Shown here in pieces: positions 2,007 to 35,927 of a stretch of 38,858 nt of DNA (position 1 is its first letter; each line of letters begins with the position of its first letter). The position numbers and the translations under genes are program-made. The notes beneath the pieces were generated by a model. The model saw only the letters and a list, made by a program, of their open reading frames with translations. It searched no databases and was not told the origin of the DNA. The DNA comes from a virus: IMG/VR virus record IMGVR_UViG_3300048904_000120; one strand, 5' to 3'.

Positions 2007-2290
2007 ACCGCCTCCAGTTGGTTAGCCATCAATCGCGCACGGCAAGCGTCTTGCATCGCCCGTAGCGTCTCCATCGCTCGAAACACTGGCGGCGTATCCT
2101 CGCGCGTGCTAAACCAAATGCAGCCCGATCTATCGCGGCGGCCGTTGCATTTCACCTTGCCGCTGGTTTCAAGTCGCGATAGTGCCTGGCGCACCTTCTG
2201 AGCCGTAATGTCGATGCTGTCGGCGATCTGCTGAACGGTGGCGCCCTCGGGCTGCGTGCTGAGGTAATCGCTGATGCGGGCTGGAATCAT
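2003..2290 (-). CDS. Small winged-helix DNA-binding protein (MarR/ArsR-like fold)
   Basis: 95 aa. ATVQQIADSIDITAQKVRQALSRLETSGKV is HTH plus wing-like. Translationally coupled on both sides. Confidence 0.6.
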   Translation of the reverse strand: MIPARISDYLSTQPEGATVQQIADSIDITAQKVRQALSRLETSGKVKCNGRRDRSGCIWFSTREDTPPVFRAMETLRAMQDACRARLMANQLEAV

Positions 2291-3084
2291 GCTGCCTCCG
2301 AATCAAGGCCGCCCACGTCGCGCGATGCTCGCCGGTGGCTCTCCCAATCAAACTTCACGCTTACGCCAGATTCGCTCAGGCGGTCCATGAATCGCTCGCC
2401 GAGATACGCCTTCAGGCTCGGTACGTCGAGGTTCGTCAGCAGGATGGTGGGCTTGCAATTGAGCCTGCGCGCCTCTAGCAGCTCGTGCAGCGTGCGTTGC
2501 TCGTCATCCGTTCCGCGCTGCAATCCGATCTCGTCGAGGATCATCAAATCGATCGACTCGAACTGGCGAAGCATCTGTTCTTCGGTAAGCTCGGAGTTGC
2601 GCGACCATGTTCCGCGAATCTTGGTAAACAAGCGTGCGGTGGACGTAAAGTAGACGGTGTGACCGCGTGCCATCAGGTAGTTAGCAGCGGCGCATGCAAG
2701 GTGCGATTTACCGGTACCAACTTTGCCGATTCCTACAAGGACAGTGCCGCACCTGAGATGGTCTTGGAATGTCCGGGCGAAATTCTTGAACCTTGACCAT
2801 GCAAGGTCTTGCGGGGGCGTCTTTTTTTCGTAGTTATCGAAAGTCCGATCGCGGAACAGCGCCGGGATACCCGCTTGCTCAAGACGCGCCTCGACCTTCG
2901 CCTGACGCTCTGCGCGCTCCTTCTCTGCTTTAGCGGCGGCCTCGCGGTCTTCGGCGTTTTGCTCGCACACGGGGCAGCGATCAGCTCGGATAACCCGCTC
3001 GCCAACTGAAAACGAGCGGATCGAGAACTTTCCATGTTCTGCGCACGAGCCGATTTGCACGGTTTGGCTGATCGAAACGTTCAT
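2287..3084 (-). CDS. DnaC/IstB-like AAA+ helicase loader with an N-terminal zinc ribbon
   Basis: Walker A GIGKVGTGKSH, Walker B DLMILDEIG, N-terminal C..H...CPVC. It sits downstream of the initiator gene. Confidence 0.8.
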   Translation of the reverse strand: MNVSISQTVQIGSCAEHGKFSIRSFSVGERVIRADRCPVCEQNAEDREAAAKAEKERAERQAKVEARLEQAGIPALFRDRTFDNYEKKTPPQDLAWSRFKNFARTFQDHLRCGTVLVGIGKVGTGKSHLACAAANYLMARGHTVYFTSTARLFTKIRGTWSRNSELTEEQMLRQFESIDLMILDEIGLQRGTDDEQRTLHELLEARRLNCKPTILLTNLDVPSLKAYLGERFMDRLSESGVSVKFDWESHRRASRDVGGLDSEAA

Positions 3085-3602
3085 TTTTGCTCTCCGTGAT
3101 TAGCGAAATCTCCGTGCAATTTTTCGCGAAGTTCAATAGCTGCGTGTTTTGCGTCTTCGATGTTTTTGAACGTGCCGCCATTCACCATGCGGCCGTCGTG
3201 ACTGACCCGAGCACACCATGCGTTCGAGGCCTTATGCCAAAAGACCCCTTTTATGCCGCTAGTGTTGTCGCGCCGCATCTTCGCGTTTCTCACGTTTTCA
3301 GTGTTGGAGCACACGCGAAGGTTCGCGATTCTGTTGTCAGATCGAACGCCGTTGATGTGGTCGATATGGCCTTCCGGCCACGCCCCATTGGCGAGCAGCC
3401 ATGCGACACGGTGCGCTTGGTAGAGCTTTCGATCTATCTTGACCTTCAGGTATCCCTGAATGCCGATCGATCCGGCAACCTGCCCGGCTTTGATGCAGTT
3501 GGACTTCGCTACCTTCCATCGGAGTTCGCCGGTTTCTGCGTCGTAGCTAAGTTGTTCCGAGACGTACTCGCGTGTTAAGTGCGTGGTCGTTAAATCATTC
3601 AT
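3081..3602 (-). CDS. HNH homing-type endonuclease with an AP2 DNA-binding domain
   Basis: HRVAWLLANGAWPEGHIDHINGVRSDNRIANLRVCSNTEN followed by GVFWHKASNAWCARV. The ATG at 3602 follows SD AAGGAA. Confidence 0.8.
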   Translation of the reverse strand: MNDLTTTHLTREYVSEQLSYDAETGELRWKVAKSNCIKAGQVAGSIGIQGYLKVKIDRKLYQAHRVAWLLANGAWPEGHIDHINGVRSDNRIANLRVCSNTENVRNAKMRRDNTSGIKGVFWHKASNAWCARVSHDGRMVNGGTFKNIEDAKHAAIELREKLHGDFANHGEQK

Positions 3603-3638
3603 CGCGGTTCCTTGTTTGTTTTTGTACAACACTTCTGG

Positions 3639-4352
3639 TTAGAAAAGTGGCGTGCTGTAGTCCATGTCAGCAAGCGATTTTGTTTTACTAGATGATACCC
3701 CAGATGTTTTAGAGTTGGGCGGAAAAATACCCTGATATCCGTTCGCAATCGAGTGATTGATCGCCGCCTTCAGATCGACCCCTTGCGCGCGGTAGGCTGC
3801 GAGCTGCTCGATTGTCTTCAGTGCGCTGCTAGGCGTCATCGGCTTTTTCTTCTCTCTGCGGTGTTGCTCCCATTCGGCCCATAACTCAGGATCGAGCCAT
3901 TCAGGTAAGGAGGGGCGCGCAGCGACCTTTTCAGTCTTTGCTGCCTTTCTCAGTTCTTTCTTAGAATCAGTACTTACTAGTGGTTGATTACCCAAATCTG
4001 GGTTTCCCTGATCTGGATTACCCAAATCTGGGTTTCCTGAATTTGGGTCGGAGGGCGTCGCGCGCTCGCGAACAAGGTAGTCGAGCGTCCCGTCTGCGTG
4101 CTTCTTGCGTCTCAGATAGCCGACATTCAAGAGTTCGTTAATGATCGCGTAGACGGCCGTTTTGCCAGACTGGCGCTGTCCTGCGCCTGCCGTGCAGTTG
4201 ATCAGTGCCTCAATGCTGACGCGCCAATGATCGGGCTTGCCAAGCAGGAAGATGAGCATCCCGCGAGCGGCCCACGACAGGCGCTCATCTTCACTGATCC
4301 GCTTGTCGAGAATGTAGAAGTTGCTGTCCGGGCGCGGCTCTCGGATGATCAT
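3639..4352 (-). CDS. Replication initiator (lambda O / DnaD-like, N-terminal wHTH) with an internal GNPD(L/Q) repeat linker
   Basis: Track ORF 3639-4511 trimmed to the ATG at 4352, which overlaps the upstream stop (ATGA). It is followed by a loader gene and contains the iterons at 3986-4050. Confidence 0.7.
   Translation of the reverse strand: MIIREPRPDSNFYILDKRISEDERLSWAARGMLIFLLGKPDHWRVSIEALINCTAGAGQRQSGKTAVYAIINELLNVGYLRRKKHADGTLDYLVRERATPSDPNSGNPDLGNPDQGNPDLGNQPLVSTDSKKELRKAAKTEKVAARPSLPEWLDPELWAEWEQHRREKKKPMTPSSALKTIEQLAAYRAQGVDLKAAINHSIANGYQGIFPPNSKTSGVSSSKTKSLADMDYSTPLF
3986..4050. repeat. In-gene iteron array (candidate lytic origin)
   Basis: The 22-bp GATTACCCAAATCTGGGTTTCC occurs perfectly repeated at 3986-4007 and 4016-4037. 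Overall there are four 15-bp units (3991-4050), with an AT-richer stretch at 3961-3990. Confidence 0.6.
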
Positions 4353-4828
4353 GCTGCGTTCCTCTTGAGGACGGAAAACGACTTCTTGCCCTTGGTGCTG
4401 TTGCAGGATCGGCAAAGCGTCTGCAGGTTTTCGAGCGTCGTCGGGCCGCCGTCGCGCTCGGAAATGATATGGTCGCAGCAGAGATCGACGTGCGAGCTGC
4501 ACATGACGCACCGGTACGCATCACGCTCGAAAACAGACTTCGCAAGGGTTCGGCTGATTTTCGCCTTCTGGTAGACGTCCCCCCGGCTTCTTGAGCGGAT
4601 GGCGCCGGAGGCGTACATCTGTTCCTCGATTCGGCGCATCATTTCACCGCCATTCCCGTCGCCCCACTCGCGCATAAACGGGGCAGCCTCTTCGATGGCC
4701 TTTTTGATTCGCCGATCAAACTTGGCGCTCGCGGCCTTCGCCGCCTTCTCGTGGGCGCGCGCCGCAGCCTTCTGCTCCGGTGTCATCCACCATTCGTAGT
4801 CGATGTCCAAGATGCTGTTCACGCTCAC
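4349..4828 (-). CDS. HNH endonuclease
   Basis: C-terminal CVMCSSHVDLCCDHIISERDGGPTTLENLQTLCRSCNSTKG. The GTG start overlaps the cro-like stop. Confidence 0.85.
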   Translation of the reverse strand: MSVNSILDIDYEWWMTPEQKAAARAHEKAAKAASAKFDRRIKKAIEEAAPFMREWGDGNGGEMMRRIEEQMYASGAIRSRSRGDVYQKAKISRTLAKSVFERDAYRCVMCSSHVDLCCDHIISERDGGPTTLENLQTLCRSCNSTKGKKSFSVLKRNAA

Positions 4829-5070
4829 TCCTTGCCGGTGCCAACTACACGCGCCGGCAAATCGCGCAGGCGCAGCAGGTCGACGATCTGCATGCCGTCG
4901 CCAGCGGTGATCTCGTCGCTTGCCATAGCGAGCTTTACAGCGCGGTCAGGCGTCACAGGACGGGCGTAATTCTTGATGTGATACCAAGAGCACAGGCTCA
5001 TGCCGAGCTTCTCGCGCACCTGGTCGACGATCTTGCGGCCGTGCTTTTGGTGGAACTCGTTTGCATCCAT
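4825..5070 (-). CDS. Cro-like / YdaS-type small HTH regulator, first gene of the leftward operon
   Basis: 81 aa with SD GAGGAG. Divergent from the CI-like gene across a 267-bp control region. Confidence 0.55.
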   Translation of the reverse strand: MDANEFHQKHGRKIVDQVREKLGMSLCSWYHIKNYARPVTPDRAVKLAMASDEITAGDGMQIVDLLRLRDLPARVVGTGKE

Positions 5071-5337: not shown

Positions 5338-5787
5338 ATGACCGTAGAAACAATCGAGCGCATCCGCCAACGAAACTTCCTTTGGCTGTTTGACCAATTC
5401 AAAGAAGACTTTCGAAAGGATTGGCCGAACGAGCCAGATCGCGGAATGCTCAGACGATTTGCCGACCGTCTCGGCATGGATCAGATCTACGTGTCGCAGA
5501 TCAAGAACGGTGGGAAGAAGGAAGAGGGCGGAAACGGCCGCATCATCGGCCCGCAGCTCGCGCGTCGCATAGAGAGCGCTCTGAACCTCCCGGAAGGCTG
5601 GCTCGATACAAACCATCAGGCGCCGGCAGAAGTCCAGGATGAGGGTCTGGCAGACGTTCTAAACACTGTCCGCGGCCTCTACGAACATTCACCTGAAGCA
5701 ACGCGCGCCGCACTGATAAAGGTGATGGGCGCTATCGTCACAGGAAAGCCGATAGAGACGATCGTAGAGAAAGAGCACGCAAAATAA
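5338..5787 (+). CDS. CI-like repressor (HTH; no obvious S24 autopeptidase domain)
   Basis: 149 aa. HTH-like LRRFADRLGMDQIYVSQIKNG. Divergent from the cro-like gene. Confidence 0.6.
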   Translation: MTVETIERIRQRNFLWLFDQFKEDFRKDWPNEPDRGMLRRFADRLGMDQIYVSQIKNGGKKEEGGNGRIIGPQLARRIESALNLPEGWLDTNHQAPAEVQDEGLADVLNTVRGLYEHSPEATRAALIKVMGAIVTGKPIETIVEKEHAK

Positions 5788-6369: not shown

Positions 6370-6506
6370 TCGCCGGCGCTCCCCACGCCTGACTGCCGGG
6401 AAAGTTCGGCGTATGGATCGGTAGACCGCTAAGGAGGCGGGGCAGCCTGTAAAGCTGTCGCTTCGGCCAGCTAGGATCGTTACCTAGTCGATCCACCAAT
6501 TTCTAT

Positions 6507-6585
6507 TCCGCGAAACCCGAGCAAGGTGCATGGGCTTGACTGTTAATCAATGGCTAGCTGAGTTCGATTCTCAGGCGCGGAGCCA
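6507..6585 (+). tRNA. tRNA-like element (Asn-type anticodon loop CUGUUAA, encoded CCA) with a non-canonical cloverleaf
   Basis: T arm CTGAG-TTCGATT-CTCAG. Acceptor TCCGCG(A)/(G)CGCGGA plus G plus CCA. D arm CCCG-11 nt-TGGG. Deviations: A at position 8, a 7-66 mismatch, a 4-bp anticodon stem with a C-T mismatch, and a 6-nt variable loop. Confidence 0.4.
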
Positions 6586-6610
6586 AACAAAAAGCCCGCA
6601 TCGCGCGGGC
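6585..6610 (-). terminator. Intrinsic terminator for the leftward small-ORF cassette
   Basis: GCCCGC-ATCGC-GCGGGC (6594-6610). On the minus strand it is followed by TTTTTGTTT. Confidence 0.65.
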
Positions 6611-7038: not shown

Positions 7039-7284
7039 ATGTCTCTCGTATCGCTTGTCGTTGTCGCGCTTGTGTTGCTGCTGTCTGCGCTTGGCGTGCT
7101 GGCTGTTGCGATGCTCGCAATGGACTTCGCGGAGGACGCCGAAGAAATGGCGCTGTGCCTGGATCAAGAGAGCGCGCACGGGGCGTTACTGGGCAGCGTA
7201 GAGAGCGAGAAGCATCGACTGATTGCTGGAGCGATGAAGGCTGATCGCGAGGCGGCACTAAAACGTATCGGGGGCGATGCTTGA
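7039..7284 (+). CDS. Small membrane protein (N-terminal TM helix)
   Basis: SD GGAG. N-terminus LVSLVVVALVLLLSALGVLAVAMLA. The stop overlaps the next start (TGATG). Confidence 0.6.
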   Translation: MSLVSLVVVALVLLLSALGVLAVAMLAMDFAEDAEEMALCLDQESAHGALLGSVESEKHRLIAGAMKADREAALKRIGGDA

Positions 7285-8009
7285 TGGTTGACTTACGACT
7301 TGGCGATTGCCTGGAGGTCATGCAGACGATTGCCGACAAGTCGGTTGATCTGATCTTGTGCGATTTGCCCTACGGCACGACCCGTAACAAGTGGGATTCG
7401 GTCATTCCGCTAGAGCAGTTGTGGTCGCATTACAACCGGATCGCGAAGCCGAATGCTGCTGTGGTGCTGACGGCGCAGGCGCCTTTCGACAAGGTGCTCG
7501 GCGCATCGAACGTCGCCGCGCTCCGGTACGAGTGGATATGGCGCAAAGAGGCGGGGACAGGGTTTCTCAACGCCAAGCGCGCGCCACTGAAAGACCATGA
7601 AAACGTGCTCGTTTTCTATCGCGAGTCGCCGACGTACAACCCTCAGATGCGAACGGGGTTCAAGCCGTATAAGTGCGCACAAGGCAAGACCAAAAGCGCG
7701 AACTACGGTGCGCAATCTGGCGCCGTGACGGAAAGCAGCGGCGAGCGTTACCCGCTAACCGTGCTGGACTTCCCTCGCGACAAGAACAAGGTCCATCCCA
7801 CGCAGAAGCCGGTCGCGCTGTTCGAATACCTGATTCGCACGTACACGAACGAAGGCGACACGGTGCTCGATAACTGCATGGGATCGGGCACTACCGGCGT
7901 TGCCGCAGCTCGCACCGGCCGCAAGTTCATCGGCATCGAGCGCGATCCGGGCTACTTCGCCATCGCGACGAATCGCATTGCTGGCGCTCAGTCATTGGAG
8001 GCTGCTTGA
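7284..8009 (+). CDS. DNA methyltransferase (beta-class N6-adenine / N4-cytosine type)
   Basis: Motif IV DLPYG (DLILCDLPYGTT) lies upstream of motif I NCMGSGTTGVAAARTGRKFIGIE. Confidence 0.9.
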   Translation: MVDLRLGDCLEVMQTIADKSVDLILCDLPYGTTRNKWDSVIPLEQLWSHYNRIAKPNAAVVLTAQAPFDKVLGASNVAALRYEWIWRKEAGTGFLNAKRAPLKDHENVLVFYRESPTYNPQMRTGFKPYKCAQGKTKSANYGAQSGAVTESSGERYPLTVLDFPRDKNKVHPTQKPVALFEYLIRTYTNEGDTVLDNCMGSGTTGVAAARTGRKFIGIERDPGYFAIATNRIAGAQSLEAA

Positions 8010-8905
8010 TCGATTACCAGAAGGCCATTGAGACGCACGGCAGCATCAAGGCTGCAGCTCGGGCAAGCGGCATCGCAGAGACGACGTTTCGCGATCGCAT
8101 GAAGGCGGCGAAGCATCAAGACGTGGTGCTGACACTGACGGAAAAGAAGCTGACGAACCGGCTTGCGATTCGCAACGGATCGATCGTCGTCGGCTCTGAC
8201 GCTCACTACTCGCCGAAGCTGGTCACGACCGCGCACAAGGCGTTCTGCAATGTGATCGCGGAGCACGCGAGCGATATCAAGGCCGTGATCCTGAACGGCG
8301 ACCTGCTCGACGGCGCACGTATCTCGAAACACGCCCGTATTGGCTGGCAAAAGACGTGCAGCGTCAAGGACGAGCTAGAGGTGGTGCAGGACCGCTTAGG
8401 CGAGATCGAGGCCGCTGCGCGCGGTATGAAGCTGCTGCGCACGATCGGAAACCATGACGTGAGATTCGACAGCCGCCTGGCTCACTCTGCGCCGGAATAC
8501 GAAGGCATCGCAGGGTTCGCGCTCGCTGACCATCTGCCGGCGTGGAAAGACTCATACAGGATCGACGTCAATGACGACACAGTCATCATCCATTCCGTCG
8601 CAAACGGGATGCACGCAGCCTATAACAACGTCGTCAAGGGTGCCGGATACCACGTCATTACCGGACACACACACCGTCTTCAAGCCGTTCAATTTCGAGG
8701 TTTTGGGCGTCTACGCTACGGAATCGAAACCGGCATGCTCGCCGACCCAAGCCAAGACGAATTTCATTACCTGACCGGCCGCAATGCGAACTGGCAGAGC
8801 GGCTTTGCGCTGCTGACGTGGCGTGATGGCGAGTTGCTGCATCCAGAGTTCTGCTCGGTGCGGGATGACGGCAAGGCGTACTTCCGTGGACAGAGGATGG
8901 CATGA
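8006..8905 (+). CDS. HTH-fused metallophosphoesterase (Mre11/SbcD-style GNHD motif set)
   Basis: TTG start after GGAGG. N-terminal HTH GSIKAAARASGIAETTFRDRMK. Motifs GSDAH, NGDLLDG, GNHD and GHTH. Confidence 0.6.
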   Translation: MIDYQKAIETHGSIKAAARASGIAETTFRDRMKAAKHQDVVLTLTEKKLTNRLAIRNGSIVVGSDAHYSPKLVTTAHKAFCNVIAEHASDIKAVILNGDLLDGARISKHARIGWQKTCSVKDELEVVQDRLGEIEAAARGMKLLRTIGNHDVRFDSRLAHSAPEYEGIAGFALADHLPAWKDSYRIDVNDDTVIIHSVANGMHAAYNNVVKGAGYHVITGHTHRLQAVQFRGFGRLRYGIETGMLADPSQDEFHYLTGRNANWQSGFALLTWRDGELLHPEFCSVRDDGKAYFRGQRMA

Positions 8906-29819: not shown

Positions 29820-30007
29820 GCCGCTTCAACCGTTGTGGGTTGCTTCTTCGGCGGGATTGAATTGGGGTGCGGCGGCATGCCGAGCAGTCGCCGTGCCTCT
29901 TCTCGAACATCGACCGAGCAGAACAGACCCAGATCGTCAATGTCCTGAAGCCGGAATGCGAAACATTCGAATTCTTCTGCCGTTGCTTTTTTCGGGGCTG
30001 GCAACAT
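29816..30007 (-). CDS. Hypothetical 63-aa protein, last leftward gene
   Basis: Track ORF. It has its own upstream promoter (30045-30080) but no clear SD. Confidence 0.4.
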   Translation of the reverse strand: MLPAPKKATAEEFECFAFRLQDIDDLGLFCSVDVREEARRLLGMPPHPNSIPPKKQPTTVEAA

Positions 30008-30044
30008 GGTCTGTCACTTTTATTAATTTGGTTAAACGCCTTAT

Positions 30045-30080
30045 GTATTAATAATACTCCACAGACCTAACGATTTGCAA
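30045..30080 (-). promoter_or_regulatory. Sigma70-like promoter TTGCAA-18-TATTAT overlapped by the palindrome GTATTA-A-TAATAC (30045-30057)
   Basis: The -35 is at 30075-30080 and the -10 at 30051-30056 (minus strand). Confidence 0.45.
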
Positions 30081-30190
30081 TGTCGAAGTTTTGTTGTTGT
30101 GCATGTTGACATAATAGGTATTATCGGTTCTTTTTTGCGTTCACGGTGATGAACGCTAGGTGTCCGGCAATGGGACGCTAGGAGCCGATT

Positions 30191-30316
30191 TAGCGTACCT
30201 GTAGCCGAACACTACGCTGCATGTGGATAACTTTGGCGTACCTGTGACCGGACTCTAAATCTCATAGCGTACCTGTGGCCGAACTCTAAACCGGCTTAGC
30301 GTACCTGTGGCCGGAC
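30191..30316. repeat. Four 20-bp iterons, consensus TAGCGTACCTGTRRCCGRAC (candidate parS or plasmid-type origin)
   Basis: Copies at 30191-30210, 30234-30253, 30265-30284 and 30297-30316, all in the same orientation. Start-to-start spacings are 43, 31 and 32 bp. They lie in an AT-richer non-coding stretch. Confidence 0.85.
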
Positions 30317-30326
30317 AAAACCATAC

Positions 30327-30950
30327 TTATATCTCTTCTATATCCTTCGGCGCTGCCGCGATCCGCCTCCGGGTGTCCATCAAACGGCGCACTGCAGGGT
30401 GCGCAGAATCCTCATCAACCTCATCAGGCGGCGTCGCAAGTTCAGTTGTTGGAAGCGCGGCCTTCAGAACGCCTTCGGTGGAATCCCACCTAAAACCGTC
30501 TCCAGGAATGATCTCGCAGTTTGTGAGCGCTTCGGCGTCGACGCGCCCGCGTTCGTTCACCGCCTCGCCGATTGCCTTTAGACGCTCGCCAATCTTCATA
30601 GGGATATAGTCGACCACGATTGTGCACAAAACTCGCGTTCCTAGCCGAATGTCTAGGCGCTCGCGGGCGATGTATAGCGTCCCTGTCTTGCCCTTTCCTT
30701 TCGTGATGACGCGAAGCATCCTGTGTTTTTCAAGGATCTTCACGCACTCGGATACGGTGCTCTTCCCCATCCCTGTCATTTCGGCAAGTCGGCGGATTCC
30801 CGGCTCGGCCTCGCCAGTGTCGAAGTCGGCGTGGCTTTTGATGGCCTGCCAAAGACCAAAGGCGCTCATCCCGATCTGTGCGGCAATCCCCGATTCGAAC
30901 AAGTCGCGCTGCATGGTCTGGAATGTCGTATCAATCTTGGTCTTCATCAC
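30327..30950 (-). CDS. Winged-helix DNA-binding protein (Rep-like or centromere-binding candidate)
   Basis: 207 aa. HTH IRRLAEMTGMGKSTVSECVKILEKHRMLRV. Coupled to the RHH gene, with iterons immediately 3' of it. Confidence 0.55.
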   Translation of the reverse strand: MMKTKIDTTFQTMQRDLFESGIAAQIGMSAFGLWQAIKSHADFDTGEAEPGIRRLAEMTGMGKSTVSECVKILEKHRMLRVITKGKGKTGTLYIARERLDIRLGTRVLCTIVVDYIPMKIGERLKAIGEAVNERGRVDAEALTNCEIIPGDGFRWDSTEGVLKAALPTTELATPPDEVDEDSAHPAVRRLMDTRRRIAAAPKDIEEI

Positions 30951-31195
30951 TTGCCGCCCTGCTTCCGCCGCGCCAGCTCGCGCCGCGCCCCTTCGACAAG
31001 CAGGTCAGACATTGGCGTGTCAGTCAGCTTCATAAACGCGCGCAATTCCTCATACAAGCTCTTTGGCATGTTCACCGCCATTCGCTGCGTTGAGTCGCGC
31101 TCGCGGAATGTCGGCTGTGCTTCGTTCTCTGGCTTTGCTGGTTGCTGGCCAATAAAGGCGTCGACAGCGCTGCGGTTCAGTGGAGGATTAGCCAT
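30947..31195 (-). CDS. Ribbon-helix-helix protein (ParG-like partition adaptor candidate)
   Basis: 82 aa with a disordered N-terminus. The C-terminal RMAVNMPKSLYEELRAFMKLTDTPMSDLLVEGARRELARR is an RHH pattern. It overlaps the parA stop. Confidence 0.6.
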   Translation of the reverse strand: MANPPLNRSAVDAFIGQQPAKPENEAQPTFRERDSTQRMAVNMPKSLYEELRAFMKLTDTPMSDLLVEGARRELARRKQGGK

Positions 31196-31838
31196 TGAGA
31201 ACCCCCGCCATCAGCGTTCCGAACTCGTCGCTCGCCTTCCCGTCTCGGTATTCGGGCGGCAACTCCATAACCGAAAGCCCTAGTTTCGCGCCCTTCCGGT
31301 ATGCCGCGCGGTCGACGATCGTCGGGCCTAGTTCGAAGTCTCCCATTTCCCGGATAACGTCGATCGATTCGTCAAGCTCGGCCCTGATGTAGTGCGGAAC
31401 GGCGTTCACGAAGGCGATAGCGCGCACTGGCGCCGTTACCGTCGCCCTTCTCTGCCTGACTATGTGCGCCGTCTGCGCAAGGCTCCAGGCGTCAAATTGG
31501 CCTATCCGCAACGGAATCAGGATTATGTCAGCCAATGCCATCGCGACGCGTGTTTCCATATCGAGGTTCGGCGGGCAGTCGATGACGATGTGATCGAAGT
31601 TCGGCGCGTCAGCAGTGACGGCGTGCCCGTAATTTTGGTCGACCCGCACGACGCTTAGGTTCTGCGGCACTTCGGCGTCGATGCGCAACTGCCCCCACTG
31701 GTACGCGCTGGACTGGTACGGATTGGCGTCGTATAGGCGCACAGAGCCGCCCTGCATGGCGAGCGTACCGGCGACGTTGGTGGCGGTCATTGTCTTGCCG
31801 ACGCCACCCTTCTGCATCACAATCGCTATGATGGTCAT
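31188..31838 (-). CDS. parA: ParA/ParF-type partition ATPase
   Basis: Deviant Walker A MQKGGVGKT. 216 aa. The ATG at 31838 follows GGGGAAGGAA; the track ORF starts at TTG 31886. Confidence 0.85.
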   Translation of the reverse strand: MTIIAIVMQKGGVGKTMTATNVAGTLAMQGGSVRLYDANPYQSSAYQWGQLRIDAEVPQNLSVVRVDQNYGHAVTADAPNFDHIVIDCPPNLDMETRVAMALADIILIPLRIGQFDAWSLAQTAHIVRQRRATVTAPVRAIAFVNAVPHYIRAELDESIDVIREMGDFELGPTIVDRAAYRKGAKLGLSVMELPPEYRDGKASDEFGTLMAGVLNG

Positions 31839-31906
31839 GTTCCTTCCCCTGTTATTGTGCGCAAATCCTAGTTCATACTTGCGCAAACATCAATGGGGGA
31901 AGTGAC

Positions 31907-31932
31907 GCATACGTATGCGCGTGTGCGCACAC
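31907..31932. promoter_or_regulatory. Two adjacent perfect 12-bp palindromes upstream of parA (par operator / centromere candidate)
   Basis: GCATACGTATGC (31907-31918) and GTGTGCGCACAC (31921-31932). TGCGCAAA also occurs twice (31858-31865, 31880-31887). Confidence 0.6.
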
Positions 31933-31938
31933 GTATGA

Positions 31939-32436: not shown

Positions 32437-32933
32437 TTTCCTTCCTCCCCAGATTGCCTTGCTCGGTCGATGGCGGCGTCGAGCGCTTCCTCGATCGTCT
32501 TGCCGCGTCCGTACAAAAAAAGATCAGTCTTTTCTCGCCGATATTCCGGAAGCGAGAACCACCAACTCACACCTTCCTTGTCTCTCTTCAACGTCACGCT
32601 GCCCGGCGAACCTTGAATAGAGAAATCGCATGCATAGAGGCACCAGCCTTTCGGGATTCGCTCCTGAATGCTTGCATCATCCGGCGTGGGGTGGGTGAAT
32701 TGGTCGATGCCGCTACCGTCGCACGCAAAGCATTCCTGATCCGTGCCAATGTCGGGATCGCGCACCATGCGACCCGTCCCGCCACAACCGCCGCACGGCT
32801 CCTTCCTCTCCGCCAATACGCGGGATTCGTAAAACTCGATCAGCGGTTGCACGGCGCTCAGCAACTGGTCGTCGCCGTGAGTCCTGAGATTCAGGATTGC
32901 CAGATCGAGCGCTGCTTTCTGTTCGTCCGTCAT
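32433..32933 (-). CDS. Hypothetical protein with a DnaJ-type zinc-finger motif pair
   Basis: CGGCGGTG and CFACDGSG (CxxCxGxG, twice). ATGA coupling on both sides. Confidence 0.65.
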   Translation of the reverse strand: MTDEQKAALDLAILNLRTHGDDQLLSAVQPLIEFYESRVLAERKEPCGGCGGTGRMVRDPDIGTDQECFACDGSGIDQFTHPTPDDASIQERIPKGWCLYACDFSIQGSPGSVTLKRDKEGVSWWFSLPEYRREKTDLFLYGRGKTIEEALDAAIDRARQSGEEGK

Positions 32934-34093
32934 TTGCTCGCTCCCTTGGCAATGGCGGCGTCGATCAACTTCTGAACGGAGTTGAACGATTCGTCGAGCG
33001 TGCCGGCGGTATAGATCGCGTGCCTTGCGCTTTGCAGAGCTGTCACCGTGCCGCGTTCTGCATCCTTCTCCATCCCCGCGATCCGCTCGCGCAGCGCGGC
33101 GATCTCGGCGGAGGGGTGGGCGTAGAGCGGCACTTCGACCATATCGGCAGGCGCGAGCTTTTTCAGGTTCTCATCGAGCGGAACGCGGCACAGGTCAACG
33201 CCTCGATGGCTCGTGTACATCCACGCCACCGGCTCCGCCTGCCCCTCACTCGCCCCCGCCGCATCGGCTACCGAACTCGCGGGAGGGGCGGCGAGAGCAA
33301 CACGGGCTTGCCATCCCTCCCAGCGCGCGTTGAGATAGTCGCGTCCCTCTCCGTATGTATCTCCTTCGCGAAGCGCCCTCACATCGTCGGCGGTATGATC
33401 GCTCGCCCATCCGTTTTCATGCATCGATCGGTTCCACACGACGGCGTAATCTGCTTCAAACCGCTCGCGCTCTTGCTCTGCGCTCTGCGCCCCCGCTGTG
33501 TCGGCGTCCGCACGCTCAGGCGTAGGGGCGGCGTCTGTGCCGCAGGTCAAGCAATCGACTTCCCAACAGTGAGGGCACGCCACCGGCTGCGCCCCCGCTG
33601 TGTCGATAGCAGGCTCGCACGGATCGTTGCACGTCTCGGGATCGCCGCAGCAGTGCGCAACGTCGGTCGTGAATGGTGCGCCGTATGGCGCGGAGCGCGG
33701 TAGCTTCGACATAACGAATTCCGCAACCGAGTTGGCTAGCTTGTAATCCGCCGGAATGGTGTATCGACCAAACAGGCCCATCACGATGTCTTGCAAATCG
33801 CCGTCGCTCATGACCTTGCGTCTTGCGGCTTGATGGTTGGCAAACGTCCTCAGAAGTTGAGCCGCGCGAGCACACACCGCGTCGCCTTCGTAATTGCTGA
33901 AGCGGGTTATCCGGTAGCTCATCTCGTCAAGCTGCTCGGCAATATCGAGCGCATCCCTCACATCGTCCTGCTTCGCCCCCGCTGTGTCGGCGATGCTCGC
34001 GGAGAGAATCTCAGCCGCGACGCGTTCGAACGATTGAAGCGAGTCTGCATTGCGCGCCGTATTGAACAACTGGCGGATGAGTTCTTGGGTCAT
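32930..34093 (-). CDS. Hypothetical 387-aa multi-domain protein with a Cys-rich centre and DTAGA(Q/K) repeats
   Basis: Track ORF with SD GGAAAG. Central HCCGDPETCNDPCEP...CPHCWEVDCLTCG. Contains three copies of a 16-bp DNA repeat. Confidence 0.7.
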   Translation of the reverse strand: MTQELIRQLFNTARNADSLQSFERVAAEILSASIADTAGAKQDDVRDALDIAEQLDEMSYRITRFSNYEGDAVCARAAQLLRTFANHQAARRKVMSDGDLQDIVMGLFGRYTIPADYKLANSVAEFVMSKLPRSAPYGAPFTTDVAHCCGDPETCNDPCEPAIDTAGAQPVACPHCWEVDCLTCGTDAAPTPERADADTAGAQSAEQERERFEADYAVVWNRSMHENGWASDHTADDVRALREGDTYGEGRDYLNARWEGWQARVALAAPPASSVADAAGASEGQAEPVAWMYTSHRGVDLCRVPLDENLKKLAPADMVEVPLYAHPSAEIAALRERIAGMEKDAERGTVTALQSARHAIYTAGTLDESFNSVQKLIDAAIAKGASK

Positions 34094-34340: not shown

Positions 34341-34700
34341 TTATTTTCGCGCGAGTAAACACAGATCGCGGAAGCCGTTCTGCGATCGCTCATAGCCAAC
34401 TAGGTTCTTGCTCATCCATGCGGGCGGTTCGGCGCGCTTCGTCTTGCTGTCGATCGCCTCCCGAAGTTGCTCACCTTCCAATAACTCGAACGTGATGGCG
34501 CCGCGCTTGCTGTTGTTGCGCCAGACCATGCCCTTCTGCACCATCAGATGCAGCGTGTCTCGCACGCAAGCCCGTGGGCGTCCCGGCAGTAGTCCCATCA
34601 CTTCTTCTTGCGAATACGCGCGTCCTGCCTGCATGGCGTCTGCCAGCTCGTGCGGAGATATCGTTTCCGGCTGACGGCCGATGTTGATTGTGTTTTTCAT
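34341..34700 (-). CDS. Hypothetical 119-aa protein
   Basis: Track ORF with ATGA coupling to the upstream gene. Confidence 0.65.
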   Translation of the reverse strand: MKNTINIGRQPETISPHELADAMQAGRAYSQEEVMGLLPGRPRACVRDTLHLMVQKGMVWRNNSKRGAITFELLEGEQLREAIDSKTKRAEPPAWMSKNLVGYERSQNGFRDLCLLARK

Positions 34701-35122
34701 GCTGCCTCAGCTTCCATTTTTCCATCGCGAACGAACTTCCATTCGTCGTATGCGCGATCCCAGGTTGCGAACTTTTCTTCTCTGCTTGCCTTGCCGGCGT
34801 CTAGCCATTGATGGCACCAATGACAGCCCGGAACGGTGTAGGCGTGGTCAGCCTTCAACCCCATTCCTTTGCCGTGCTTGCCCTGGTTGCTATGGCAGGG
34901 GACAACGATATCGGGCGAAGCGTCTCCGCCGCACACGACGCCGAGAAAGCATCGTTCGCCGCGGCACGCTGCAAGGTACTTTGAGCCTTCGGCTACGGTT
35001 GGCTTCTTGATGCGCGACTTCATCGCCGTGCGCTTGATCGTCGTCTTTCGATCGGCCAGCTCGAACGGCTTCGGCTCGGGGCGCTTGAATCCGGTACGCT
35101 TCATCGGTGCGGATCGTTTCAT
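34697..35122 (-). CDS. YbcO / DUF1364-like putative nuclease
   Basis: The C-terminal 141 aa of track ORF 34697-35608. CRGERCFLGVVCGGD...VVPCHSNQGKHGKGMGLKADH...CHWCH. ATGA coupling at 35119-35122. Confidence 0.6.
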   Translation of the reverse strand: MKRSAPMKRTGFKRPEPKPFELADRKTTIKRTAMKSRIKKPTVAEGSKYLAACRGERCFLGVVCGGDASPDIVVPCHSNQGKHGKGMGLKADHAYTVPGCHWCHQWLDAGKASREEKFATWDRAYDEWKFVRDGKMEAEAA

Positions 35123-35532
35123 CGCGCGGCTTCCGATGAACGTACAGTAAGCTGCCAGAAGGGATTGAAGGTTCCGCGCTTGATCGCATCCTTGGCAAGC
35201 AGCAGACCGTACAGCTTGTCCCGGTAGCGCGCAGACGCATCGGCCCGCGCACGTTTTTTGTCGAACTCGACATCGCGCTTGCTGCCTGCGCGGTAGATCG
35301 CCGCAGCGCCGTCGCCGCCACGTCCGCCGACGCGCTGGCTCCAGTCGCAGATATAGACTTGCTTCGGCTTGGCCGTGTGCATGTTGTTGATGTGCTTGCG
35401 TACGCCGCTGACAGACATTCCCATCATGGCCGCGATCTGCGGAACGGTTGCAGGCTCTTTCTGTAACAGTTCGACGATGAGTCGCCTGTTCTGGTAGCGC
35501 GAGCTGTTCGGGTCTTTGGGGCTTCCTCTCAT
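35119..35532 (-). CDS. wHTH DNA-binding protein
   Basis: RRLIVELLQKEPATVPQIAAMMGMSVSGVRKHINNMH. Confidence 0.6.
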   Translation of the reverse strand: MRGSPKDPNSSRYQNRRLIVELLQKEPATVPQIAAMMGMSVSGVRKHINNMHTAKPKQVYICDWSQRVGGRGGDGAAAIYRAGSKRDVEFDKKRARADASARYRDKLYGLLLAKDAIKRGTFNPFWQLTVRSSEAAR

Positions 35533-35927
35533 GCTGCAAATTCCTCGTAACTTGCCGGCGCACTCCAGCGCACGCCTCGTTCGGATCCGAAAGCCTGGAT
35601 AAGCTCACAAAGATCCGAAAACATGCGCTTCGTCATTCGCGACGTGCTCTGTCCGAGCGCAATAAACCCGGTGCCTTCCATGTTCGGAACGACGGTCATC
35701 TTCTGAAGCGACGCACTGAAAAAATCCTTCCACTCAGCAGGCGTCAGCTTGCGGCCGTACCACTCGACTTGATTCGATACGTCCGTCAGGAGCGCCCACA
35801 GGAGCGCGTTTTGATCGTTCGATCGGGTAGGGGCGGAAAGCGTCAGCACATCGCCGTCAGGGCGGCGCTTGAGGCATTCGATCGCGTATGCGCGGCTCGT
35901 CGGCGTAAGGTAGATGGTTTCTTTCAT
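35529..35927 (-). CDS. ninB: NinB (Orf) recombination mediator
   Basis: Strong resemblance to lambda NinB: RSNDQNALLWALLTDVSNQVEWYGRKL...GQSTSRMTKRMFSDLCELIQAFGSERGVRWS. Confidence 0.9.
   Translation of the reverse strand: MKETIYLTPTSRAYAIECLKRRPDGDVLTLSAPTRSNDQNALLWALLTDVSNQVEWYGRKLTPAEWKDFFSASLQKMTVVPNMEGTGFIALGQSTSRMTKRMFSDLCELIQAFGSERGVRWSAPASYEEFAA

Follow-up and report, generated by a model that had tools for sequence, protein, structure and literature searches.

Phage P1, a tailed temperate phage that does not integrate into the chromosome, relies on a plasmid replicon made up of repA and the iterons and DnaA boxes of oriR, on the parA-parB-parS partition locus and on Cre-lox dimer resolution, and keeps a separate replicon, oriL/repL, for lytic growth. 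Phage-plasmids are now recognised as common, few of them are podoviruses, few are known outside the enterobacteria, and Burkholderia phage KS14 is catalogued among them (Pfeifer et al. 2021, PMC7969092). Here, we report on a viral stretch of 38,858 nucleotides (IMG/VR record IMGVR_UViG_3300048904_000120, hereafter the window, to which all coordinates refer unless a related locus is named), a P22-like podophage chassis with a lambdoid early region and a CI-like repressor, and on a module of about 1.8 kb (30104-31933) in which a ParA-type partition unit, a candidate replicon with iterons and a dif-like site lie side by side. We put the probability at about 0.7 that this is a phage-plasmid, in which a partition unit, an iteron-type theta replicon and the dif-like site make up a self-contained maintenance module, and a low-copy plasmid is most likely the state of the phage in its host. 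An earlier note made from the sequence alone had proposed that the phage is temperate, lacks an integrase and probably persists as a plasmid, and this proposal is supported and strengthened by what follows, although the module is built differently from the way that note had it.

As in P1, an iteron and DnaA-box replicon is found beside a ParA operon in a tailed temperate phage, together with a proposed multimer site and a second, probably lytic replicon, and P1 is probably also matched in the lack of chromosomal integration. The differences are considerable, however. P1 is a myophage of 94 kb with a type Ia partition system, the initiator RepA and its own recombinase Cre, whereas the phage described here is a P22-like podophage of 38.8 kb with a type Ib system (a small ParA and a ribbon-helix-helix (RHH)-like partner) and an initiator of the HTH_36 class with about 200 amino acids (aa), and host XerCD would act at its dif-like site. 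KS14 is likewise a phage-plasmid that bears ParA and has a betaproteobacterial host range, and its gp40 is the best phage match to the ParA of the window (32.9%), but KS14 is a P2-like myophage.

The closest described partition system is ParF-ParG-parH of plasmid TP228, which the module resembles in a ParA that matches ParF over its full length, in an overlapping downstream gene of about 80 codons and in a repeat-rich upstream region; unlike in TP228, no similarity to ParG or any RHH family was detected for the 82-aa partner, and the centromere is a candidate only. HTH_36 Reps encoded next to iteron-like repeats have been described for the Paracoccus plasmids pAES7, pMARC3, pMOS2 and pAES1 and for pKL1 of E. 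coli (PMC3832669). As in these small plasmids, PF13730 is the only recognisable domain of the initiator described here and iteron-like direct repeats adjoin its gene, but the repeats lie 3' of the gene and enclose a DnaA box, and the gene is joined into a phage par operon. The dif-like site shares with cer, psi, Acinetobacter pdif and the sites of the CTX, VGJ and TLC phages an 11-6-11 organization, inner arms that match the dif of the host clade and the lack of a recombinase of its own. The phages among the integrative mobile elements exploiting Xer (IMEX) that are named in the accounts available to us are filamentous or non-tailed, whereas here the phage is tailed and its site adjoins a complete rep/par module.

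Proposed partition and replicon units in natural recombinants

The three minus-strand genes of the module encode ParA, an 82-aa protein and a winged-helix protein, and form one operon in which start and stop codons overlap. They were read against 140 related loci (labelled L followed by a number), with the exact ParA known from 18 metagenome contigs and the winged-helix protein represented by about 100 homologues, and the breakpoints of recombinants were placed by blastn of the loci against the window together with protein-level comparison. One locus (L016) has only 30106-30949 in common with the window, that is the initiator gene and the iterons, at 91.5% identity, while its ParA is 31% identical to that of the window and an RHH homologue is missing there. 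Two others (L081 and L112) have only about 30945-32106/32382 in common, covering the RHH gene, parA and the leader at 91–94% identity, and carry a different HTH_36 protein. In L037 both flanks are in common with the window and 30123-30771 has been replaced. The homology of the recombinants stops at the dif-like site. The partition unit and the replicon unit are inherited separately, and since natural recombinants split the cassette into these units, 30104-31933 is not one type Ib partition locus. The earlier note had described such a single locus with the iterons included, a claim that fails because the iterons co-vary with the winged-helix protein and not with the ParA-RHH pair. A siphophage contig of 52 kb (L013, 10001-11815) has the order reversed, with the initiator homologue, repeats and an inverted DnaA box followed by ParA and a 110-aa protein, and this reversal implies that rep and par units have been linked in at least two arrangements.

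The partition unit (30947-31933) contains parA (31188-31838, minus strand), which encodes a ParF-like type Ib ATPase of 216 aa with the deviant Walker A motif KGGVGKT at residues 10-16 and no N-terminal DNA-binding domain; its length falls within the range of about 200–230 aa of the small deviant-Walker-A ParAs of type Ib. The protein matches Pfam AAA_31 (1.8e-19) and CbiA, the ParA-like family phrog_164 (3.7e-37) and, with residues 3-210 aligned to positions 1-201 of 203, the NCBIfam profile NF041546 ParA_partition (1.7e-37), where its 129 bits lie below the 180-bit equivalog cut-off. A full-length match to ParF of TP228 (PDB 4dzz, 2e-7) and identities of about 30–36% to thousands of plasmid ParAs complete the picture, and these matches confirm the small ParA/ParF-type ATPase of the earlier note.

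The downstream gene (30947-31195, minus strand) overlaps parA by 8 nt and encodes a ParG-like partner of 82 aa, which is co-inherited with ParA across the recombinants. In alignment A2 of this protein the C-terminal 45 aa are invariant and the N-terminal tail is variable, with a conserved MANPPLNRS motif. The AlphaFold2 model leaves residues 1-44 without secondary structure and places helices at 45-58 and 62-80, and for the C-terminal part an extended segment and then two helices are predicted. A flexible N-terminal tail and a strand-helix-helix C-terminus would be the layout of ParG. A PDB profile search and a fold search with this protein were uninformative, and tblastn against plasmids returned no matches. 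What stands of the overlapping ParG-like RHH protein that had been proposed is hence its position, size, 8-nt overlap and co-inheritance, while a significant RHH match is lacking.

In the leader of parA two perfect palindromes of 14 bp, CGCATACGTATGCG (31906-31919, minus strand) and CGTGTGCGCACACG (31920-31933, minus strand), abut and contain three CATACG/CGTATG cores; they are two of only seven perfect palindromes of at least 12 bp in the window and correspond to the pair that had been noted before as 12 bp each. This leader is kept wherever the same ParA-RHH pair occurs (L015, L037, L040) and is exchanged for other repeat sets where ParA differs (L016, L039, L019), and Caballeronia relatives of the RHH protein have CGTATGG/CCATACG arrays in the leader position. 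The palindromes and CATACG repeats are candidates for the centromere and the operator to which the RHH-like partner would bind. A candidate autonomous promoter of the parA operon, TTGATG-17 nt-TAGGAT (31865-31893, minus strand), was read from the sequence and scores below the threshold of the consensus scan; two TTTGCGCA boxes (about 31857-31865 and 31879-31887) flank or overlap it.

The winged-helix gene (30327-30947, minus strand) is coupled to the preceding gene by an ATG that overlaps its TGA, in agreement with the earlier description, and encodes a protein of 206 aa of the HTH_36 class. The Pfam HTH_36 score of 23.4 bits lies under the 25-bit cut-off and HTH_IclR is also matched, but PF13730 is carried by most of the 98 homologues examined for it, and PHROG profiles link the protein to DnaD-like and O-like replication initiators by their N-terminal domains (2.7e-8). 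The AlphaFold2 model (pLDDT confidence score 83) has an N-terminal winged helix. Among its weak fold hits is 4pql_B, entered as 'N-terminal domain of DNA binding protein', which we presume, without relying on it, to be the N-domain of a staphylococcal RepA. The protein had no tblastn match in 72,556 plasmid records and 50,697 phage records. Sibling phages with 82–94% identical lysis genes have, in this order, their own ParA, a small partner and then Rep_3 (Rep3_N 4.9e-32, and Rep3_C), RepL (5e-32) or another HTH_36/DnaD_N protein. This interchange with Rep_3 and RepL, taken together with the 3' repeats, the DnaA box, the similarity to initiator domains and the precedent of the HTH_36 Reps, marks the third gene as a replication-initiator slot, and from the shared slot and that precedent we propose that the winged-helix protein is a plasmid-type replication initiator.

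Directly 3' of the gene lies an array of four iterons (30191-30322, minus strand), whose 18-nt cores start at 30193, 30236, 30267 and 30299, so that the four direct repeats reported downstream of the cassette are indeed present, at 30193-30316. The core GCGTACCTGTRRCCGRAC has 4 matches against 0.21 expected, a number reached in none of 100 shuffles, and the spacing of 43, 31 and 32 bp puts the repeats on roughly the same helical face. A perfect DnaA box, TTATCCACA (30222-30230, minus strand), is the sole match in the window (0.08 expected); it lies between iterons 1 and 2 and accounts for the extra 11–12 bp by which these two are further apart than the others. Of 26 non-redundant loci with initiators at least 50% identical, 24 have a perfect DnaA box in the same orientation, 53–131 nt downstream of the stop codon, and a perfect box is likewise found past the initiator stop in a Caballeronia isolate contig. 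The repeats themselves follow the initiator subtype whatever ParA lies upstream: GTCCGGCCACAGGTACGCTAA occurs with initiators 93–100% identical to that of the window, GTTCGGCTAGMGTAACGCTA with a 64%-identical subtype and GTTCAYCCCSGTGAACGCAA with a 56%-identical subtype, and between two and four repeats are found from the stop codon onward in all initiator homologues, distant ones included. This co-variation, the embedded DnaA box and the slot shared with Rep_3 and RepL argue that the winged-helix protein and the iterons form a plasmid-type replicon and are not a partition component. With such a replicon at hand, replication in the plasmid state need not use the lambda-like O/loader genes.

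A candidate unwinding element is seen in a 30-bp AT-rich patch (30316-30345, GC 0.30) that spans the initiator stop codon immediately ahead of the first iteron, and AT-rich starts after the stop codon likewise occur in L037, L040, L020 and L075. The 80 bp with the highest AT content in the genome (30018-30097) were dropped as an unwinding element because recombinants place this stretch outside the module, and the cumulative GC-skew extremes at 4855 and 30184 were rejected as origin markers, being confounded by gene orientation. An inverted repeat at 30141-30160, GCGTTCACGGTGATGAACGC (GCGTTCA-N6-TGAACGC), is a single copy of the iteron of the 56%-identical subtype. Units of this type occur three times in L037, L039, L040 and L075 (Caballeronia) and are absent from L016, whose initiator is 98% identical; the copy in the window may be left over from an exchange of cassettes or may be an accessory site in common use, and is probably dispensable. 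A 44%-identical initiator homologue in L011 (2268-3300) and L012 is preceded by an AlpA-type HTH_17 gene, followed directly past its stop by palindromic repeats and adjoined by a gene for a TraG-like coupling protein; the contig is bacterial and also carries GST and SspB genes. The arrangement resembles an integrative element with the same design of initiator plus 3' repeats and without ParA.

The integrase position and the dif-like site

The module sits at the distal end of the leftward early region, in the usual int-xis-attP place of P22-like phages, and a P22-like Burkholderia gladioli element has an integrase and an excisionase at the equivalent position. Pfam scans of all open reading frames (ORFs) with coding signal, and of 36 other stop-to-stop frames of at least 155 aa, gave no match to integrases, resolvases, rve/DDE transposases or protelomerases, and no recombinase was matched in NCBIfam and PHROGs scans of the unannotated proteins. 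The integrase-less nature of the phage, as claimed before, thus holds in the scans of coding ORFs and alternative frames. The further step from the lack of a recombinase gene to the lack of integration is weakened, however, as host recombinases could act through the dif-like site (30104-30131). Upstream of the module, an orphan protein of 387 aa (32930-34093) is mosaic, with homologues that cover 6–53% of it in differing combinations, some of them from chromosomal contigs of Paraburkholderia and Caballeronia. Its candidacy as a cryptic recombinase is unsupported, since neither the protein nor its homologues show a recombinase domain, and no domain at all was recognised in the protein.

The replicon module is closed by a 28-bp dif-like XerC/XerD site, AGAACCGATAA-TACCTA-TTATGTCAACA (30104-30131, minus strand), which had gone unmentioned in the earlier note and has a single match in the window. 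The motif CTATTATGTCAA is found at the distal boundary of every module and resolves into this 28-bp site, of which 28 distinct versions occur in the related loci, behind winged-helix, Rep_3 and RepL cassettes alike. The inner arms YGATAA and TTATGTCAA are conserved and the 6-bp centre and the outer ends vary, which, judged from the sequences, is the conservation pattern described for proteobacterial dif. The dif of chromosome 1 of Burkholderia mallei is AATGTCGATAATTGATATTATGTCAAAT (PMC2731167). Compared with this dif, divided as AATGTCGATAA-TTGATA-TTATGTCAAAT, the site in the window has the same 11-6-11 organization, and the inner CGATAA and TTATGTCAA are identical. Multimer resolution is the third classical plasmid-stability function, and plasmid-borne Xer sites that serve it, such as cer and psi, are the common case. 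Resolution of multimers by host XerCD would be the most economical role for the site.

On its other side the dif-like site borders a slot that extends from the end of the late operon (29820-30103) and is hypervariable among L015, L039, L081, L084, L087, L088 and L104. In the window it is taken by a 63-aa ORF that has a TTGCAA-18-TATTAT promoter of its own, and in other loci by an XRE regulator, acyltransferase_3 genes, a glycosyltransferase, a methyltransferase-like gene or fibre-like proteins. The slot looks like a hot spot for lysogenic-conversion cargo with the Xer site as its border.

Close relatives of the module were seen on contigs below 50 kb only. None of the 18 contigs with the exact ParA exceeds 50 kb, nor does the longest contig found for RHH homologues or for initiator homologues at least 50% identical. 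In Caballeronia novacaledonica the order ParA-RHH-initiator-iterons-DnaA box is found on a contig of 47.2 kb, for which an independent assembly of the reads gave 46.0 kb, and Caballeronia sp. NCTM1 has ParA-RHH-RepL on a phage contig of 39.9 kb; these isolate contigs were compared over 14–20 kb of each. Partial homologues of the phage proteins in Paraburkholderia and Caballeronia agree with a host in the Burkholderiaceae.

Several siblings have the 22-mer TCGATAAACTCTATTATGTCAA as their Xer-like site, central region included, and this 22-mer has one occurrence in the metagenome collection, at 10904-10925 of L158. There it is flanked by genes for a porin and an Rrf2-type regulator, in AT-rich intergenic DNA of a bacterial contig on which sulfate-transport and EF-P genes are found as well, and it is probably a chromosomal dif. 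A scan for the junction between the rep side and the Xer site of the phage itself gave no matches, the free form included, which means that the collection lacks these samples and that the scan is uninformative on integration. No integrated copy was seen among the fetched loci.

In the mechanism that we propose, the ParF-like ParA would act in partition with its ParG-like DNA-binding partner on the leader palindromes and CATACG repeats, while the initiator would bind the four phased iterons that directly follow its gene on the 3' side and, together with host DnaA at the embedded box, open the origin. Host XerC and XerD would resolve plasmid multimers at the dif-like site and thereby allow partition to work. 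During lysogeny, the lambda-like O/loader replicon and the late genes would be kept silent by the CI-like repressor, and the promoter of the module itself would keep its three genes expressed.

Phage chassis, early region and repressor switch

A direct repeat of 104 bp at the contig ends closes the genome into a circle of 38,754 bp with 58% G+C. The plus-strand block from about 7.3 to 29.8 kb comprises the structural, packaging and lysis genes, with a Terminase_3 large subunit, a P22-type portal (3.4e-177), a P22 coat protein, ejection-type proteins with an SLT domain, two pectate-lyase-fold tailspikes, a lysozyme and a holin-like protein. One replicon hence holds a complete phage structural, packaging and lysis set in addition to plasmid replication and partition genes. 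The rightward operon opens at 7281-8905 with an N6/N4 DNA methylase and an overlapping metallophosphoesterase (phrog_221), followed by the terminase region. The closest cultured phage by portal has only 50% identity, a nucleotide search of 50,697 phage records with the right 14 kb of the window gave no matches, and only five plasmids in PLSDB have an even distantly P22-like portal. Rfam at gathering thresholds found nothing in the window.

The minus-strand block is a lambdoid early region that runs from about 5.1 kb across the contig junction down to 30.3 kb and includes ERF, Gp157, RusA and NinB. Its lambda-like replication genes (2287-4352, minus strand) are an O-like initiator (3639-4352; phrog_678 replication initiation, 2.5e-22) and an IstB/DnaC-like loader (2287-3084; IstB_IS21, 2.5e-16). 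A lambda-dv-like cro/O/loader replicon had been put forward as the means of replication in the plasmid state; the O-like initiator and the loader do exist, but they are not needed as that source and are probably the lytic replicon. An HNH/AP2 endonuclease gene (3081-3632, minus strand; HNH_3, 8e-18) sits between the two and is one of three HNH endonuclease genes in this 38.8-kb genome, the others being at 4349-4828 and 34697-35122. The ORF listed as 34697-35608 (303 aa) is really a gene of about 141 aa, which overlaps an HTH_5 gene (35119-35532) in another frame.

The CI-like repressor (5338-5787, plus strand) has 149 aa and no peptidase domain, and matches the transcriptional repressor family phrog_12107 (1.6e-10) as well as phrog_4 (2e-4). 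Divergent from it is a Cro-like ORF of 81 aa (4825-5070), which has no family match, so that of the CI/Cro-type switch described before, the repressor half is backed by PHROG families and the Cro half is not. Between the repressor and the late genes, where coding signal is low, ARAGORN calls a tRNA-Tyr(GTA) with a long variable arm (6415-6498), and directly after it comes another tRNA-like sequence (6506-6587) that has a perfect T-arm and a CCA end; both are below the Rfam tRNA threshold. A tRNA-type attP at 6415-6587 was considered and rejected on account of the full-length tRNA-like genes and the lack of an integrase nearby.

Alternative readings and the phage lineage

The translational coupling of three genes in one operon and the repeats on both flanks would suit an entire cassette that works as a single type Ib partition locus, in which the iterons are the centromere and the winged-helix protein is an accessory, and an O-like initiator and an IstB-like loader exist from which plasmid replication could start in the manner of lambda cro/O/loader. 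This is improbable given that the iterons track the winged-helix subtype and are indifferent to the type of ParA-RHH pair, that the perfect DnaA box inside the array is kept across the family, that winged-helix homologues with 3' repeats occur without any ParA, and that Rep_3 or RepL takes the same slot in sibling phages. We give as little credence to the winged-helix protein as a transcriptional regulator, be it a repressor of immunity or maintenance or a regulator of the cargo genes, with the repeats as operators and no origin. The generic winged-helix regulators that alone turn up in fold and profile searches, the JGI names of the homologues (GntR, MarR or IclR-type regulators) and the variable cargo slot adjoining the repeats all speak for such a role, but it would not account for a perfect DnaA box in nearly all loci, for Rep_3 and RepL as replacements in the slot, for the PHROG similarity to the N-domains of initiators or for the tight linkage to ParA in integrase-less phages. 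Very remote is the case of a phage that is effectively virulent or only pseudolysogenic and employs its ParA and Rep genes in lytic growth, for instance for genome positioning or early replication. The Cro-like ORF without family support and the repressor without a cleavage domain would be in keeping with it; the CI-like repressor as such, the lambdoid recombination genes ERF, RusA and NinB, the conversion-type cargo (acyltransferases, glycosyltransferase) beside the module in siblings and the phage-sized contigs of two cultured isolates with the same module are not.

The dif-like site raises a different issue, since a sibling-type site that is identical to a bacterial intergenic site gives Xer-mediated integration some plausibility. 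Lysogeny could then be IMEX-like, with the prophage integrating at host dif by XerC/XerD and the rep/par module serving before integration, after excision or as a backup. The inner arms are of the Burkholderia type, the site is kept in all siblings whatever their Rep type, TCGATAAACTCTATTATGTCAA has its bacterial counterpart between housekeeping-type genes as expected for a chromosomal dif, and a phage-encoded integrase was not found. Even so we hold it to be unlikely, as a full replication-plus-partition module would be redundant for an integrated prophage and no module-bearing contig exceeds 50 kb or has host flanks. The central regions moreover differ among close phages, as they are free to do if the site recombines only with its own copy, and plasmid Xer sites usually serve multimer resolution. 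It is in the same vein a speculation with the odds against it that a P22-like Burkholderiaceae lineage has swapped its integrase for host XerCD and shuttles between a DnaA-dependent, partitioned plasmid and a dif-integrated state. If true, this would be the first tailed-phage IMEX and a dual-mode lysogen, with an Xer site that also marks the exchange junction for Rep cassettes and conversion cargo.

Several other observations weigh against a phage-plasmid with its own iteron-type replicon and type Ib partition unit. The RHH fold of the 82-aa partner is tentative, as no RHH family, PDB sequence or fold gave a significant match. The initiator belongs to no curated Rep family, with no NCBIfam Rep model matched and HTH_36 just under its threshold, and PDB fold and sequence searches return only generic winged-helix regulators (fold E > 0.006). 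Distant initiator homologues, less than 50% identical, occur in bacterial chromosomes without ParA, which means that the family is not restricted to plasmids. There is no clear AT-rich unwinding element inside the module, and the GC-skew maximum at 30184 is the point at which the two transcription blocks converge and so is not independent evidence. The data show gene identities at the level of families, the anatomy of the repeats, their co-variation and the modular inheritance; from these we infer DNA binding throughout, the autonomous promoter, activity in replication and partition, the action of Xer and the episomal state.

The phage-plasmid as a kind is already known from P1, KS14 and the published catalogue (PMC7969092); new here are the podoviral chassis, an uncharacterised initiator family with interchangeable Rep cassettes, and the dif-like site. 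For the genetics of Burkholderia, Paraburkholderia and Caballeronia the locus offers a candidate replicon of about 850 bp and a partition cassette, both precisely delimited, and the initiator family has a clear code of specificity between initiator sequence and iteron over about 100 homologues. For the prediction of prophages it is a caution that a missing integrase implies neither missing lysogeny nor missing integration. Together with its metagenomic and Caballeronia relatives, the locus defines a P22-like lineage of the Burkholderiaceae in which a maintenance module of about 1.8 kb replaces the integration module. From natural recombinants, three parts of this maintenance module can be told apart: a partition cassette, a Rep/origin cassette that is interchangeable (HTH_36-class, Rep_3 or RepL) and a site for host Xer.

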